Shown: positions 5,850 through 22,346, counted from the stretch's first letter. The stretch is DNA of 22,346 nucleotides from a virus (IMGVR_UViG_3300045988_116769); one strand, 5' to 3'. Translations and numbers: made by a program. Notes: generated by a model not told the origin, from the letters alone.

Positions 5850-6130
5850 TACGGTTTCCCCCTGCCCTTAAAACGGCGCTGAATGGCAATCTCAATCACC
5901 TGATAACCGGCGATACCCAGCATGGAGCCGATACCGCACACCGCAGGCAGTGACAGGTCAGGAAACTGCACCAGAACAACACCGGCAACCATCGAGACAA
6001 AACCACCGAGCAACATGCGCCCGATAAACAGACGCGGGGTGATGGGTTCACCACCGGCAAGCACCTTGCCGACAACAATCAGCACCCCAATCATGAAAAG
6101 CGACAGGACGCTTTTTTCTTCTGCTGTCAT
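5849..6130 (-). CDS. Y: Holin Y
   Basis: 93-aa ORF with hydrophobic transmembrane segments and a charged C-terminal tail (RRFKGRGKP); same length as P2 gpY; start overlaps the K stop. Confidence 0.8.
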   Translation of the reverse strand: MTAEEKSVLSLFMIGVLIVVGKVLAGGEPITPRLFIGRMLLGGFVSMVAGVVLVQFPDLSLPAVCGIGSMLGIAGYQVIEIAIQRRFKGRGKP

Positions 6131-13175: not shown

Positions 13176-15395
13176 ATGGAACTTAAATTAAAGAATATAA
13201 CCAGCTATAAGAAAGATAGCTTCACGACTCTTAATCTCTCAAAAAAAATTAATATACTTTATGGTCACAACGGTTGTGGAAAATCAACCATATCTAATTA
13301 TTTCTATAATCCAAATAACACGGACTACAAAGAATGCGAATGTCCTTTCATAGATACTTTTCGCCTATTGGTTTATAATACTAAGTTTGTTGAGGATAAT
13401 TTTTATAATGCAAAAGAGCAAAAAGGAGTATTCACTTTAAGTAAGGAAAATGCTGACATTGAAAAAGAATTGTTGGAAAAAGAAGCTATAAGACAAGACC
13501 TACTTACAAAATACAAAGATAAAAAAAACGTTATTGAGCGTTTAATTAAAGATAAAAACAATAAAGAAAATGAATATATTGATTTAATATGGAATAAAGC
13601 AGAACCTTTTAGATCATCTGACTTAAAGAACTTGATGAAAGGTCAGTTAGGAAGCAAGAGATCATTTTATGAGCAAGTTAAAAAAGCCCCTCAAACCACT
13701 GACGTTAACATCGAGTCACTTGCTCAAGAATATAGTATTCTTTTAAAGAACAAAGATAAATTCACTGCATCAATTACACCTTTAGAAAAATATATCATTT
13801 CAGAAAAAGATAAAGAATCTTTATCCACTCCGATTATAGACTCAAGTAATAGCTATTTGTCAGAAACAATTAAACAACTTCAAAACCTTGACTGGGTGAA
13901 AAAAGGGAAGGAATTATATTTAAATGGCACATGTTGCCCATTCTGCCAAGAAGACACTATTAAAGACAAATTTTTAGAAGCAATTGAATCTATCTTTGAT
14001 GATAGCTACTCCAAGAAAGTTGACCAAATACGCATTATCAGATCGTCTTATGAATCCGCTACCATAGATAATTTAAGAAAAATAAAACAAGAGATTTCAT
14101 CTTGTGAATTAATCACCTCAAAAGAAAAAGATATAACATCATCTCATATAGCGTTATTAGAGGAAATAGCAAACAAAAACTTAAAATTGATGTTAGATAA
14201 AATCAATAACCCATCTATATCTATTATTTTGGAATCCAATAGCGACCTTGAAGCAAAGGTAGTTGATAATATAGCAGAGTACAACAATAGAATTAAAGAA
14301 ATAAATATTAAAGTCAAACAATTTAAGGATAGTGAAAAGTCTATACGTTACAAAATATGGGGAGCAATAAGAGAATTATGCAACGCTGAGTTTGAAGCTT
14401 TCTCAAAATATGAGAATGACTATAAAATCATTTATGAACAATATCAACTTGAATTAAATACCATAAAAGAACAAGGAGATAACAATAGCAAAAAGATCAA
14501 AGAGCTACGCGATCAAATATCTAACATTGATGCAACCATAGATTCTATAAATCAACGTCTAAAATTATTAGGAATTTATGGTTTTAGCATAAAAAAACAC
14601 ACTGAGAGCAATGATAAATATATTATATCACGTTCTGAAAACACAACAGATAAAGATGTATACAGATCTCTTAGCGAGGGTGAAAAAACTTTAATTACCT
14701 TTCTCTACTTTCTGGAATGCTGTAAAGGTAAGACAGATAAGAATGATACGGATATGCGAGATGTATTTATCGTTATTGATGATCCAATATCCAGCCTCTC
14801 TCAAAATTATGTGTACGATATTGCTTCAATAATTCACCATGAAATAATCAACAATAACAAAGCAGTAAAGAAAACATTAATACTCACACATAACCTTTAT
14901 TTCTTTCATGAACTTATCAAATTAGCTCCTAGAAGCAAAGAAGATAGAACATTCAAGCGTGATTATTATCTTGGACGAGTAACAAAAAATGAATATAGCA
15001 TAATTACAGAAATAGAGAAAAAGAGCATTCAGAATGAATACCAGTCCCTATGGCAAGTATTAAAAGATGCGAAGGATGGAAGGGTAAATAAAGTCATAAT
15101 ACCTAACATCATGAGAAATATACTGGAATACTACTTCGCATTTGTTCATAGAACGGATGCATTACAGACAGAGTTAAATAAACTTGCTAGCGATGATAAG
15201 AATAATGATTTTAGAGCATTTTATAGATACATTAATAGAGGTTCCCATTCAGATGCAGTTAATATCACAGACATGGGAGATATATCTCCAGAGAAATATA
15301 TGGAGCAACTAAAAACCATTTTTCGTATGACTGGTGATGAAAAACATTATTTGAAAATGATGGACGAAGAGGAAGAGGAAACCGTTACCGCTTAG
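13176..15395 (+). CDS. Cargo gene: 739-aa ABC/SMC-like ATPase of the AAA_13 type with a coiled-coil insert carrying CxxC and a C-terminal domain; candidate RloC/PrrC-like anti-phage protein
   Basis: Walker A GHNGCGKST (13263-13289); C253-C254-P-F-C257 (13932-13946) in a Lys/Glu-rich coiled-coil-like stretch; signature LSEGEK (14670-14687); Walker B VFIVIDD with D-loop PISSLS (14763-14801); H-loop LILTHN; C-terminal R647-x3-E651 and His 658/691. About 30% GC against roughly 55% in flanking phage genes. Convergent with gene A. Confidence 0.75.
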   Translation: MELKLKNITSYKKDSFTTLNLSKKINILYGHNGCGKSTISNYFYNPNNTDYKECECPFIDTFRLLVYNTKFVEDNFYNAKEQKGVFTLSKENADIEKELLEKEAIRQDLLTKYKDKKNVIERLIKDKNNKENEYIDLIWNKAEPFRSSDLKNLMKGQLGSKRSFYEQVKKAPQTTDVNIESLAQEYSILLKNKDKFTASITPLEKYIISEKDKESLSTPIIDSSNSYLSETIKQLQNLDWVKKGKELYLNGTCCPFCQEDTIKDKFLEAIESIFDDSYSKKVDQIRIIRSSYESATIDNLRKIKQEISSCELITSKEKDITSSHIALLEEIANKNLKLMLDKINNPSISIILESNSDLEAKVVDNIAEYNNRIKEINIKVKQFKDSEKSIRYKIWGAIRELCNAEFEAFSKYENDYKIIYEQYQLELNTIKEQGDNNSKKIKELRDQISNIDATIDSINQRLKLLGIYGFSIKKHTESNDKYIISRSENTTDKDVYRSLSEGEKTLITFLYFLECCKGKTDKNDTDMRDVFIVIDDPISSLSQNYVYDIASIIHHEIINNNKAVKKTLILTHNLYFFHELIKLAPRSKEDRTFKRDYYLGRVTKNEYSIITEIEKKSIQNEYQSLWQVLKDAKDGRVNKVIIPNIMRNILEYYFAFVHRTDALQTELNKLASDDKNNDFRAFYRYINRGSHSDAVNITDMGDISPEKYMEQLKTIFRMTGDEKHYLKMMDEEEEETVTA

Positions 15396-19486: not shown

Positions 19487-19677
19487 TTCCAGACCCTCCG
19501 GCTTTTCAGAAAGGTCAGAGCCTTTTTTAACGGACTCTGTTTTTTGGTGCGGATAATGATTCCCTTACGCCCCTTACCGTGGGTGATGGTGAAGTCAATC
19601 GCCCTGGGGCTTTCGTTACGCAATAACTGAGCAATACAACGAGGCTCATTCATACGGTTCTCCTTAACGTGGTTCAC
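19483..19677 (-). CDS. Hypothetical early protein (P2 orf78 position)
   Basis: 64-aa basic ORF between cox and B, overlapping both ends. Confidence 0.5.
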   Translation of the reverse strand: MNHVKENRMNEPRCIAQLLRNESPRAIDFTITHGKGRKGIIIRTKKQSPLKKALTFLKSRRVWK

Positions 19678-19939
19678 CGAGACCTAACCACATCAACCAG
19701 CCGTCACGAATCTCTTTAGGACGGCTTTCATAAGCCAGTTTTAGTCCGTTATTCCATGCCGGAAGGTATACCCAATATTCACCAGCACGCCCCGATACTG
19801 ACTGAGGGTCAGTAATCTCAATAACTGGTAATTTCCCTTTCTCAATCATGCCCCTTACAGCTCTTGGAGTTTTACCAATGAGTTTTGCAAACTCCTGATA
19901 AGGCACGGCATCAGTCACGCTTACAAGCTGTCTATTCAT
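19664..19939 (-). CDS. cox: Cox (early-operon repressor / excisionase-like directionality factor)
   Basis: 91-aa ORF, same length as P2 Cox; first gene of the minus-strand early operon, divergent from C. Confidence 0.8.
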   Translation of the reverse strand: MNRQLVSVTDAVPYQEFAKLIGKTPRAVRGMIEKGKLPVIEITDPQSVSGRAGEYWVYLPAWNNGLKLAYESRPKEIRDGWLMWLGLGEPR

Positions 19940-20060: not shown

Positions 20061-20360
20061 ATGTCAATAGACGTTTCGGAGAAGTTGAAGCTAATCCGTG
20101 AATCTGAAAGGTTAAACCGTAAAGAATTCAGTGAATTAACTGGTGTAGCCTACAGCTCACTTTCGAGCTATGAGAGCCGGTCAAAAAACGCTGGAGTTGA
20201 AGCCATAATGAAGGTCTTACAACATCCCAGATTTACTAAATATACTTTGTGGTTCATGACTGATCAGGTAGCTCCAGAAGCCGGGCAAATTGCGCCCGCT
20301 CTCGCACACTTTGGGCAAAACGAAACAACGTCGCCCCACTCCGGTCAAAAGACTGGTTAA
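20061..20360 (+). CDS. C: Immunity repressor C
   Basis: Start MSIDVSEKLKLIRESERLNRKEFSELTGVAYSSLSSYESR at 20061 gives 99 aa as in P2 C (HTH). C-terminus ...QIAPALAHFGQNETTSPHSGQKTG matches P2 C from memory. The track ORF starts 24 codons upstream. Confidence 0.85.
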   Translation: MSIDVSEKLKLIRESERLNRKEFSELTGVAYSSLSSYESRSKNAGVEAIMKVLQHPRFTKYTLWFMTDQVAPEAGQIAPALAHFGQNETTSPHSGQKTG

Positions 20361-20475: not shown

Positions 20476-21489
20476 ATGGCAATCAAAAAACTCGATGATG
20501 GTCGATATGAAGTGGACATCCGCCCTACTGGACGTAACGGAAAACGCATCCGTAGGAAGTTTGATAAGAAAAGCGAAGCTGTCGCTTTCGAAAAATACAC
20601 GTTGTACAACCACCACAATAAAGAATGGCTATCAAAACCAACAGACAAACGACGTCTGTCGGAACTGACACAGATCTGGTGGGATTTAAAGGGTAAACAC
20701 GAAGAGCATGGGAAATCTAATCTTGGAAAAATTGAAATCTTCACAAAAATAACGAATGACCCATGCGCATTTCAAATCACGAAATCCCTTATCAGCCAGT
20801 ACTGCGCCACCCGAAGAAGTCAGGGTATTAAACCTTCGAGTATCAATCGTGATTTAACATGTATTAGCGGCATGTTTACAGCCCTGATTGAAGCGGAGTT
20901 ATTCTTTGGTGAGCACCCTATCAGAGGGACAAAGAGGCTTAAGGAGGAAAAACCAGAAACAGGCTATCTCACACAGGAAGAAATTGCCTTACTGCTTGCA
21001 GCACTTGACGGCGACAACAAAAAGATTGCGATTCTTTGCCTGAGTACAGGAGCACGTTGGGGAGAAGCAGCTCGTTTGAAAGCAGAAAATATCATCCATA
21101 ACCGCGTCACGTTTGTTAAAACGAAAACAAACAAACCACGCACCGTCCCGATCTCAGAGGCTGTTGCCAAAATGATCGCGGATAACAAACGAGGTTTTTT
21201 ATTCCCTGATGCTGATTACCCTCGCTTCAGACGAACAATGAAAGCAATAAAACCGGATTTGCCAACGGGGCAAGCCACACATGCACTAAGGCACAGCTTT
21301 GCCACTCATTTCATGATTAATGGAGGAAGTATTATCACGCTACAACGGATACTAGGTCACACGCGGATTGAGCAAACTATGGTTTACGCTCATTTTGCGC
21401 CAGAGTACCTTCAGGACGCCATTTCTCTTAATCCGCTAAGAGGTGGTACTGAAGCCGAGAGTGTCCACACAGTGTCCACAGTAGAGTAA
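20476..21489 (+). CDS. int: Tyrosine integrase
   Basis: 337-aa ORF starting MAIKKLDDGRYEVDIRPTGRNGKRIRRKFDKKSEAVAFEKY, essentially the P2 Int sequence as I recall it; C-terminal HALRHSF ... GHTRIEQTMVYAHF holds the catalytic His/Arg/Tyr. Confidence 0.95.
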   Translation: MAIKKLDDGRYEVDIRPTGRNGKRIRRKFDKKSEAVAFEKYTLYNHHNKEWLSKPTDKRRLSELTQIWWDLKGKHEEHGKSNLGKIEIFTKITNDPCAFQITKSLISQYCATRRSQGIKPSSINRDLTCISGMFTALIEAELFFGEHPIRGTKRLKEEKPETGYLTQEEIALLLAALDGDNKKIAILCLSTGARWGEAARLKAENIIHNRVTFVKTKTNKPRTVPISEAVAKMIADNKRGFLFPDADYPRFRRTMKAIKPDLPTGQATHALRHSFATHFMINGGSIITLQRILGHTRIEQTMVYAHFAPEYLQDAISLNPLRGGTEAESVHTVSTVE

Positions 21490-21568
21490 CGTTTAAGGGC
21501 TTTCAGTGGTAATTTATGCCACTCAAACCCGCATTGTACCGTTGAAAGCCCCTACTGGTGACACCCTA

Positions 21569-21595
21569 AATCTCCCTTACACGGGCTTATTTTTT
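21569..21595. other. att core (27 bp) at the int-proximal prophage/host junction
   Basis: AATCTCCCTTACACGGGCTTATTTTTT is the reverse complement of the P2 att core AAAAAATAAGCCCGTGTAAGGGAGATT as I recall it; lies 80 nt after the int stop. Confidence 0.75.
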
Positions 21596-21752
21596 ATGCA
21601 TAAGCCGTATCCTGGTCACCGTCTTCCATTGACCACATCGATAGAATCCCCCTTCATAACACGATGCCTTTCACGTAACGGCATCGTGCTCGTACAGATT
21701 CCGGCTACGCACAACCAGAACGCGCATGTTTGACGCTTACCAAAAAATATTC

Positions 21753-22070
21753 TCACTCTCCACATTTGAATGTCAGACGAGCGACGCCATGTAATCCTGC
21801 ACCTTCTGTCTTCAGGTCAACTATCTGCATTTTTTTTCCCTGAGTAACACAGAAATGAGCTGCATCATTTTTTACTATATTTTCTGCACCAGAAATTCTG
21901 CCCCTGGCTAAAGAAGCTTCGGCTTCGGTGTAGTATTGGTTATCGAGTTTACGCTGAATATTACTTTTATATGCAAGGCCAAATTTACCGATACTTGTCT
22001 CATCATTATGCACAGCACAACCAGACATAAGAAAAACACTAATTAATGATATAGCAGCTATCTTTTTCAT
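21753..22070 (-). CDS. Host-side small lipoprotein (hypothetical)
   Basis: Start MKKIAAISLISVFLMSGCAVHNDE: signal peptide plus lipobox LMSGC, 105 aa; the track ORF has a 20-codon upstream extension. AT-rich, outside the att core. Confidence 0.55.
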   Translation of the reverse strand: MKKIAAISLISVFLMSGCAVHNDETSIGKFGLAYKSNIQRKLDNQYYTEAEASLARGRISGAENIVKNDAAHFCVTQGKKMQIVDLKTEGAGLHGVARLTFKCGE

Positions 22071-22296
22071 CTTACCTTCCCCCATTAAATACCAACGACA
22101 CGCTCTGGTGTTTAAATATAATAATGGCATGATTATTATATTTGAATAGGATTATAATAAATGTTCTGTACAACATTTCCTACATAAGTAGGAATTACAG
22201 ACACGGATGCCCTTCCGGGTAACCCCATGGGGGGGTTAGTATATTTTTAATAGTATATTGAAGATGCCACTGTTTAGTTGAATATTAGGTATATGC

Positions 22297-22346
22297 CTGT
22301 CTCTTATACACATCTGACGCTGCCGACGAAGAGGATAGTGTAGATC
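22297..22346. other. Illumina Nextera adapter (Tn5 mosaic end, adapter, 8-nt index, flow-cell primer start); not biological
   Basis: CTGTCTCTTATACACATCT (mosaic end, reverse complement), GACGCTGCCGACGA, AGAGGATA (reverse complement of TATCCTCT, which I recall as index N503/S503), then GTGTAGATC. Confidence 0.9.

Follow-up and report, generated by a model that had tools for sequence, protein, structure and literature searches.

A probable P2-type attL at the 3' end of the small RNA gene cyaR, and a possible older P2-like relic in the adjoining yegR flank of Escherichia coli

Directly after the integrase gene of a P2-type prophage, the DNA considered here passes from phage into Escherichia coli sequence, and this raises three questions: where the two parents meet, which proteins would bind between the integrase gene and the crossover, and from where the chromosomal arm itself came. 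The window, that is, the whole stretch of DNA that was analysed, is the virus contig IMGVR_UViG_3300045988_116769 (22,346 nt, one strand). It is filled by a Peduovirus prophage that shows ~97% identity with sequenced P2 relatives up to the att core. The segment 21455-21643 is, with high confidence, the attL (B-O-P') of this P2-type (Peduovirus) prophage at the canonical E. coli site, the 3' end of cyaR between yegQ/trhP and yegR. The attL of P2 at cyaR is already known, so that this is a textbook junction at a textbook site, and the finding is mainly useful for annotation, where it places the edge of the prophage at 21569-21596. If anything here is new, it lies in the history of the chromosomal flank, which may hold the remains of an earlier P2-like element.

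Lysogeny genes, att core and boundary

The lysogeny operon is of P2 type, with C followed by int on the plus strand and cox in the divergent orientation. The P2-type tyrosine integrase gene lies directly beside the att site, with 79 nt between its stop codon and the core, and the protein-binding sites annotated in the attP of P2 transfer to the window at a constant offset of +19799. The features on which this part of the description is based are the following:

19664-19939, minus strand: cox, excision directionality factor and Pc repressor (Pfam Phage_Cox, 2.3e-42; position matching cox of the P2 record AF063097)
20061-20360, plus strand: C, immunity repressor (P2 C CDS at offset +19799; HTH_3 domain; Pc transcript shared with int)
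20476-21489, plus strand: int, P2 tyrosine integrase (Int_N and Phage_integrase domains; 336 of 337 amino acids as in P2 Int)
21569-21595, plus strand: att core (attP core of P2 without a mismatch; repeats the final 27 nt of cyaR)
22297-22346, no strand: adapter read-through, non-biological (homology to E. coli ends at 22296 and CTGTCTCTTATACACATCT begins at 22297)

The core, AATCTCCCTTACACGGGCTTATTTTTT, is present as a single copy in the window (plus strand, 0 mismatches, 0 copies expected by chance) and is identical to the attP feature of AF063097 (24356-24382). A first-pass annotation had placed the P2 att core at 21569-21595, directly after int, and the exact single match with P2 Int adjoining it bears this out. 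Between 21440 and 21596 the window differs from P2 at two positions only, 21453 and 21521. Homology with P2 stops at 21596 and homology with the unoccupied chromosomal site begins at 21569, so that both parents overlap over 28 bp (21569-21596), one base beyond the 27-bp core; this overlap is the crossover segment. The boundary at 21595/21596 is set by homology and not by composition: the GC content is 47-48.5% across 21400-21800 and reaches 30-39% only from ~21800, within and upstream of yegR. The change to AT-rich DNA that had been reported past 21595 is therefore not found at that point.

The contig is the product of a short-read assembly, as the window ends in adapter. Its last 50 nt consist of CTGTCTCTTATACACATCT, GACGCTGCCGACGA, an 8-nt index (AGAGGATA) and GTGTAGATC, a read-through of the Nextera/Tn5 adapter. 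Since this means that untrimmed reads got into the assembly, the junction itself might be thought to be a chimera of short reads. Such an origin is scarcely credible, given that the junction is 100% identical over 321 nt in complete, closed chromosomes, among them that of strain Q65 (CP180222), and that Q65 is collinear with window positions 1440-22296 (20,857 nt, 99.95% identity, 10 mismatches, no gaps). Furthermore, a query spanning the junction was covered by at least 80% in 812 of the 5426 complete E. coli genomes, which indicates that the real junction belongs to a common type of lysogen.

The 3' end of cyaR as attachment site

The core contains the 3' end of cyaR: it begins with the final two bases of the 5' strand of the terminator stem and goes on through the loop and the 3' strand to the U-tract. 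In the empty-site locus (L002) the core is found at 5974-6000 and CyaR (RF00112, 100.7 bits) at 5912-5997, and the Rfam CyaR match ends on the core both in this empty site and in K-12, where cyaR (2167114-2167200) stands directly downstream of trhP/yegQ and its 3' end coincides exactly with the end of the core. Because the core consists of the final 27 nt of this gene, the integration is of the RNA-gene 3'-end type and follows the same logic as that of tRNA-targeting phages. The first-pass annotation had stated that the insertion was not into a tRNA gene. ARAGORN indeed detects neither tRNA nor tmRNA, so that the statement is correct as far as it goes, but it is incomplete, as the site is the terminator at the 3' end of cyaR, an sRNA gene. 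At the window junction, and in the whole window as well, no CyaR or other Rfam family is matched (E up to 10), and the core fragment present there does not fold as a terminator.

The gene ryeE (= cyaR) was "previously known to be targeted by phages" (PMC3603311), and in older MG1655 coordinates the mapped site of P2 in E. coli C corresponds to position 2165238 (PMC3448106). As a P2 target, cyaR is thus already published. If the shift of ~2 kb between MG1655 sequence versions is allowed for, this position would lie ~15 bp past the end of cyaR.

On the chromosomal side, the first gene after the core is the following:

21753-22070, minus strand: yegR, uncharacterised small (lipo)protein gene (E. 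coli annotation; family PF27694, nearly confined to E. coli)

The lipoprotein gene previously noticed in the flank is this one; it starts MKKIAAISLISVFLMSGC and is named "lipoprotein YegR" in one RefSeq record. Inactivation of yegR gave no phenotype in one study (PMC3708739). The flank with yegR (21596-22296) is found in 5424 of the 5426 complete E. coli genomes. Strain CFSAN061770 has an empty site, in which a perfect core comes after yegQ and leads into the same flank and yegR. This unoccupied yegQ-cyaR-core-yegR arrangement provides the comparison with uninfected strains that had been proposed for the locus, and the flank, being present in strains without the prophage, is chromosomal DNA, as a prophage/host junction implies.

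The far end of the prophage lies outside the window. In Q65 the order at that end is yegQ, an intact cyaR (100.7 bits) with the second core as its end, the P arm, a terminator and ogr; the P arm is a true one, with the sequence of the IHF region plus CTGGTCACGTCCACACATTGACCACATCGACA, and the two cores are 30.8 kb apart. The second core copy that was expected at the other end has thus been located, beside yegQ, in a sibling prophage that is 99.95% identical, and from this near-identical genome the isolate studied here would be expected to have the same attR. The attR side of Q65 gives the full CyaR match and the window junction only a 3' fragment. By this comparison cyaR would be intact only at the ogr-side junction, the int side keeping a probably non-functional fragment of 27 nt.

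Comparison with known prophages places this junction very close to the attL of P2 at its primary site, which is the preferred one in E. coli C and corresponds to the cyaR/ogrK locus of MG1655: Int is 99.7% identical, the 27-bp core and the tandem P' arm sites are identical, the Cox region agrees in 73 of 74 nt and the chromosomal locus is the same. P2 differs from the prophage of the window only away from the junction, with ~97% identity and other cargo at old/tin. Related to this, a 739-aa ORF (window 13176-15395, plus strand) occupies the variable slot of P2 old/tin. It gives a strong match (4e-253) to the PADLOC candidate defence family PDC-S06, its C-terminus is PrrC-like (2.5e-14) and Pfam assigns it to AAA_13; by these matches it is, as a prediction, typical anti-phage cargo of a P2 hotspot.

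The cryptic prophage PR-X of K-12 (ogrK, yegZ) uses the same attachment site. Its left end starts in the 3' core of cyaR, it has a true P arm and ogr, and it is followed by the same B arm and yegR. However, PR-X is a 629-bp remnant of the ogr side, from which the int side, the P' arm, the Cox region and most of the second core have been deleted, whereas the int side in the window is intact. Phages and islands that integrate at the 3' end of tRNA or tmRNA genes (for example 186, and Fels-2/SopE-phi at ssrA) likewise have a core over the 3' end of a small RNA, and their replacement end keeps the gene intact (PMC3448106). Unlike in these cases, the target here is the Hfq-dependent sRNA CyaR and the part replaced is an intrinsic terminator, not the acceptor or T arm. 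The prophage of the Phollow preprint is another one, 186-like and located at a different site.

Protein-binding sites between int and the core

Three features lie on the phage side of the core:

21455-21481, minus strand: P' arm, two tandem arm-type Int sites (P2 feature "Int, P' arm" by offset)
21479-21552, no strand: Cox-binding region (P2 "protein_bind Cox" by offset; 73 of 74 nt as in P2, with the difference at 21521)
21494-21511 and 21537-21554, no strand: extended inverted repeat (18-nt arms, 83% complementarity)

The assignment of Cox, Int and IHF sites is taken over from the annotation of the P2 record and from the literature, and the sites are to be read as predicted ones. The arm-type sites (TGTGGACA) are exact on the minus strand at 21462-21469 and 21473-21480, 11 bp apart, and form part of an exact direct repeat (AGTGTCCACA twice, 21460-21469 and 21471-21480). 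Written as TGTCCACA twice, they sit within the 3' end of int, in its last ten codons. The consensus published for P2-type arm sites is tgTGGaCa (PMC3448106), and in a consensus scan both P' arm sites are perfect copies of it. They are invariant in Klebsiella Reipivirus phages: L094-L096, which are ~75% identical and have a different att core, retain both TGTCCACA sites with the same 11-bp spacing.

For Cox, the consensus TTAAA(G/C)NC(A/C) has been reported, and the attP is described as holding six cox-boxes "facing two different ways" with a spacing of 10-11 nt, on which a Cox filament wraps the DNA (PMC3936717). The footprint in the window contains about six cox-box-like 9-mers at 6/8 or better. 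Left-facing boxes (minus strand) are found at 21488-21496 and 21497-21505, and right-facing boxes (plus strand) start at 21513, 21523 and 21543, with 10-nt phasing. This layout agrees with the six boxes of two orientations described in the literature, and the density of boxes is about three times the window-wide rate; only two of them reach 8/9, the four or more others standing at 6/8, a background level met 2.7 times per 100 nt elsewhere in the window.

The imperfect inverted repeat that had been noticed at 21497-21506 and 21542-21551 is present at these coordinates, where its arms, GGGCTTTCAG and TTGAAAGCCC, are complementary in 9 of 10 positions. Each arm contains TGAAAGCCC, which agrees with the cox-box in 8 of 9 positions, and the two copies are oppositely oriented. 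The repeat is thereby created by the opposed boxes, and it is accordingly read as a pair of oppositely oriented putative cox-boxes in the Cox-binding region.

It had been proposed instead that arm-type Int sites or IHF sites would be found here, between the int stop and the core. This is the general expectation from an attP of lambda type, and the P' arm sites are just ~15 nt leftward of the repeat. Nevertheless, it is very improbable that the repeat represents such sites: in the P2 record the P' arm is at 21455-21481, inside int, and the interval after it is the Cox footprint, while no match to TGTGGACA (arm-type) or WATCAANNNNTTR (IHF) with up to one mismatch occurs within 21490-21552. In the annotated attP of P2 the IHF site, the P-arm Int sites and the ogr terminator are all on the opposite (P) side of the core; since the IHF and P-arm Int sites lie beyond the core in attP, they are located at the other prophage junction.

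On the other hand, the repeat could act in RNA. According to this second alternative, 21494-21554 forms a hairpin of the C-int transcript, acting as a 3' stabiliser, a processing site or a weak terminator, either instead of the Cox sites or besides them. As RNA the repeat folds into a 15-bp stem with -24.8 kcal/mol (z = -3.3). In the Klebsiella Reipivirus phages, ~75% identical overall and using a different core, both arms are invariant and the spacer diverges. The conservation of the arms together with the folding indicates that the element is genuine and conserved, and that the repeat did not arise by chance. In addition, the two differences in the stem between P2 and the Klebsiella phages are compatible with G.U pairing, one pair being altered on both sides (U.G to G-C). 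Most pairs are invariant, though, and therefore uninformative, and the comparison comprises effectively two lineages, with a covariation term of -0.2 kcal/mol, which is too thin for covariation to be retained as support. Moreover, the stem lacks a T-run after it, no terminator is predicted at the repeat, and the same bases make up the experimentally annotated Cox footprint, with arms that agree in 8 of 9 positions with the cox-box consensus. Conservation of a protein site is sufficient by itself to account for the invariance of the arms. A hairpin role is thus unlikely, a minor alternative that may hold alongside Cox binding. An Rfam miRNA-model match on the inverted repeat was judged to be due to chance. 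As a separate observation, the repeat arms of L094-L096, GGCTTTCA and CCGTTGAAAGCC, form a perfect 13-bp complement.

With the repeat read as Cox sites, the way in which the junction would be formed and resolved can be outlined from P2 biology (PMC3936717, PMC3448106 and established knowledge). In integration, Int would bridge the arm and core sites of attP, with its N-terminal domain on the arm sites and its core-binding and catalytic domains on the core sites, IHF bending the P arm, and the attP core would recombine with the same 27 bp where cyaR ends. As the core carries the terminator of cyaR, an intact gene would be regenerated at the ogr-side attR. In excision, Cox would oligomerise on the attL boxes that separate the P' arm from the core, bending or wrapping the DNA; Int bound at 21462-21480 could thereby reach the core and synapse with attR, which would hold the IHF and P-arm sites and where IHF would bend the P arm.

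The attL/attR system of lambda with Xis is comparable in that, as in P2, a heterobivalent tyrosine integrase acts on arm-type and core-type sites with IHF as host factor. Lambda Xis and P2 Cox are both small winged-helix directionality factors which form an array between arm and core and bend the DNA (PMC3936717 and established knowledge). Unlike in lambda, the Cox protein of P2 binds on the int-proximal P' side, hence in attL, on about six boxes that face two ways; P2 also differs in having a single annotated IHF site, on the P arm, and P' arm sites within the reading frame of int.

Origin of the yegR flank

Two further features stand between the core and yegR:

21612-21643, no strand: P-arm-like element of the B arm, CTGGTCACCGTCTTCCATTGACCACATCGATA (alignment to the P2 P arm)
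21660-21688, minus strand: hairpin downstream of the yegR stop (inverted repeat; -18.4 kcal/mol, z = -4.8)

The chromosomal arm after the core reads ATGCATAAGCCGTATC-CTGGTCACCGTCTTCCATTGACCACATCGATA, and the P arm of P2 reads ACGTACAA, then the IHF region, then CTGGTCACGTCCACACATTGACCACATCGACA. The two can be aligned if a gap of 16 nt is opened at the IHF region; the local alignment score is 38, against 15.5 +/- 2.1 for shuffles, and none of 1000 shuffles reaches it (z ~10). An arm-type-like site in this element, TGTGGTCA (21630-21637, minus strand), has the same sequence as the P-arm site farther from the core. As for the hairpin at 21660-21688, it has no T-run after it and, with respect to core and P-arm-like element, takes the place of the ogr/F-operon terminator of P2.

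A survey of 80 species-representative yegQ loci showed that the 3' end of cyaR generally resembles the core (0-3 mismatches) in Enterobacteriaceae, and that the E. coli-type flank is absent from all other species surveyed. In several genera, C. youngae and E. albertii being two of the species, a true P arm or what is left of one stands after cyaR, so that the cyaR terminator is an attachment site in wide use by P2-like phages, whose core variants agree with the cyaR of each host. A P2-type P arm of this kind, true or truncated (TGAAATAAAAGGATTTATTT...GTCCACACATTGACCACATCGA), is found ~50-110 nt past the cyaR seed in eight of the loci (L011, which is E. albertii, L013, L044, L058, L069, L070, L081 and L082). 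One record titled Enterobacter hormaechei B17-3 (L009) combines a YegQ 100% identical to that of E. coli and an E. coli-type cyaR and core (0 mismatches) with a downstream flank of the Enterobacter type. The locus is a recombinant unless the record is mixed or mislabelled.

Directly beyond the end of cyaR comes the upstream region of yegS in four loci, those of Escherichia sp. E1V33, C. amalonaticus, K. pneumoniae and Trabulsiella. In E. coli an extra 792 bp (L002 6001-6792), which include yegR, are inserted between both, exactly at the att core. The right boundary of this segment, beyond the window end, carries AATCCTCTATACTTGAACTGATTTTTT, which matches the core in 18 of 27 positions and is the best core-like match in 900 nt; its position-specific P is ~1e-4, and a match as good turns up somewhere in the region in 2.4% of shuffles. 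Immediately before this degenerate core there is an 18/24 match to the core-proximal cox-box region of P2, collinear within 1 nt. Taken as a free alignment, this P'-side similarity is not significant (164 of 1000 shuffles) and was discarded as such, being notable only for its collinearity. All the E. coli alleles examined have the same B-arm and segment structure.

These observations lean slightly towards the yegR segment (~790 bp) being the relic of an older P2-like element at cyaR, so that the present prophage would be inserted beside an earlier scar. In favour of this, the segment is extra in E. coli with respect to the four bare loci, its left end resembles the P arm of P2, the best core-like match falls exactly at a right boundary that was defined independently, with the collinear match preceding it, and the structure is shared by all E. 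coli alleles, P arms or remnants following cyaR in several other genera as well. Against it, besides the shuffle frequencies given above for the degenerate core and for the P' side, the bare arrangement is seen in a single non-coli Escherichia genome (E1V33), and the segment has no phage gene, yegR itself being without P2-linked relatives and, in a tblastn search against phages, without homologues apart from records that include host DNA. YegR was considered as P2 cargo and rejected, as this search gave only ON470606 and AY639599, and both include host DNA: the former is a prophage cut-out carrying yegR, yegS and gatR, and the latter ("Phage TP") is a K-12-like remnant, so neither, although its match to the window extended beyond the core, was accepted as a phage-borne flank. 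Divergent YegR homologues are found in unrelated, non-P2 contexts: one is in an IS-rich island of Enterobacter and another, on a contig from a metagenome, is next to mug, and neither neighbourhood has P2 genes. The absence of a phenotype after yegR inactivation (PMC3708739) is counted on the same side.

The full arrangement, in which the chromosomal arm of attB would be a fixed miniature relic of ~790 bp running from the P-arm-like element through yegR to a degenerate core before yegS, is rated as an even chance from the comparisons made. It had been considered that the junction would fall if the downstream flank proved to be phage DNA in related genomes; the flank may indeed derive from an older P2-like element, and the junction still stands, with this older layer on its chromosomal side. 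In the literature searched, yegR is not described as a prophage relic.

If the flank is a relic, both attB and yegR, an orphan of the E. coli core genome, may have come from an earlier integration and its decay at the same sRNA terminator. With TGTGGTCA retained, the attB and attL of today would be partly attP-like on the chromosomal side, and the relic could add to the strong preference of P2 for the cyaR site or influence excision, a functional effect on recombination that is considered quite improbable. Such scars could leave integrase arm sites in what passes as attB, which would be of modest value for the understanding of phage-host co-evolution.

Some minor features of the same flank were also recorded. 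The AT-rich spacer from yegR to yegS, which is part of the E. coli-specific segment, contains a terminator-like hairpin (22220-22248, plus strand; TAACCCCATGGGGGGGTTA and then GTATATTTTT), with no gene upstream on the plus strand. Strains of the SF-173 type (L098/L099; matches H117-H122 in the ecoli_genomes set) have an additional insertion of ~170 bp between the B arm and yegR, and in strain E308, from the L098/L099 set, a truncated P2-like prophage (partial baseplate J) is fused near yegR and the B arm is deleted.
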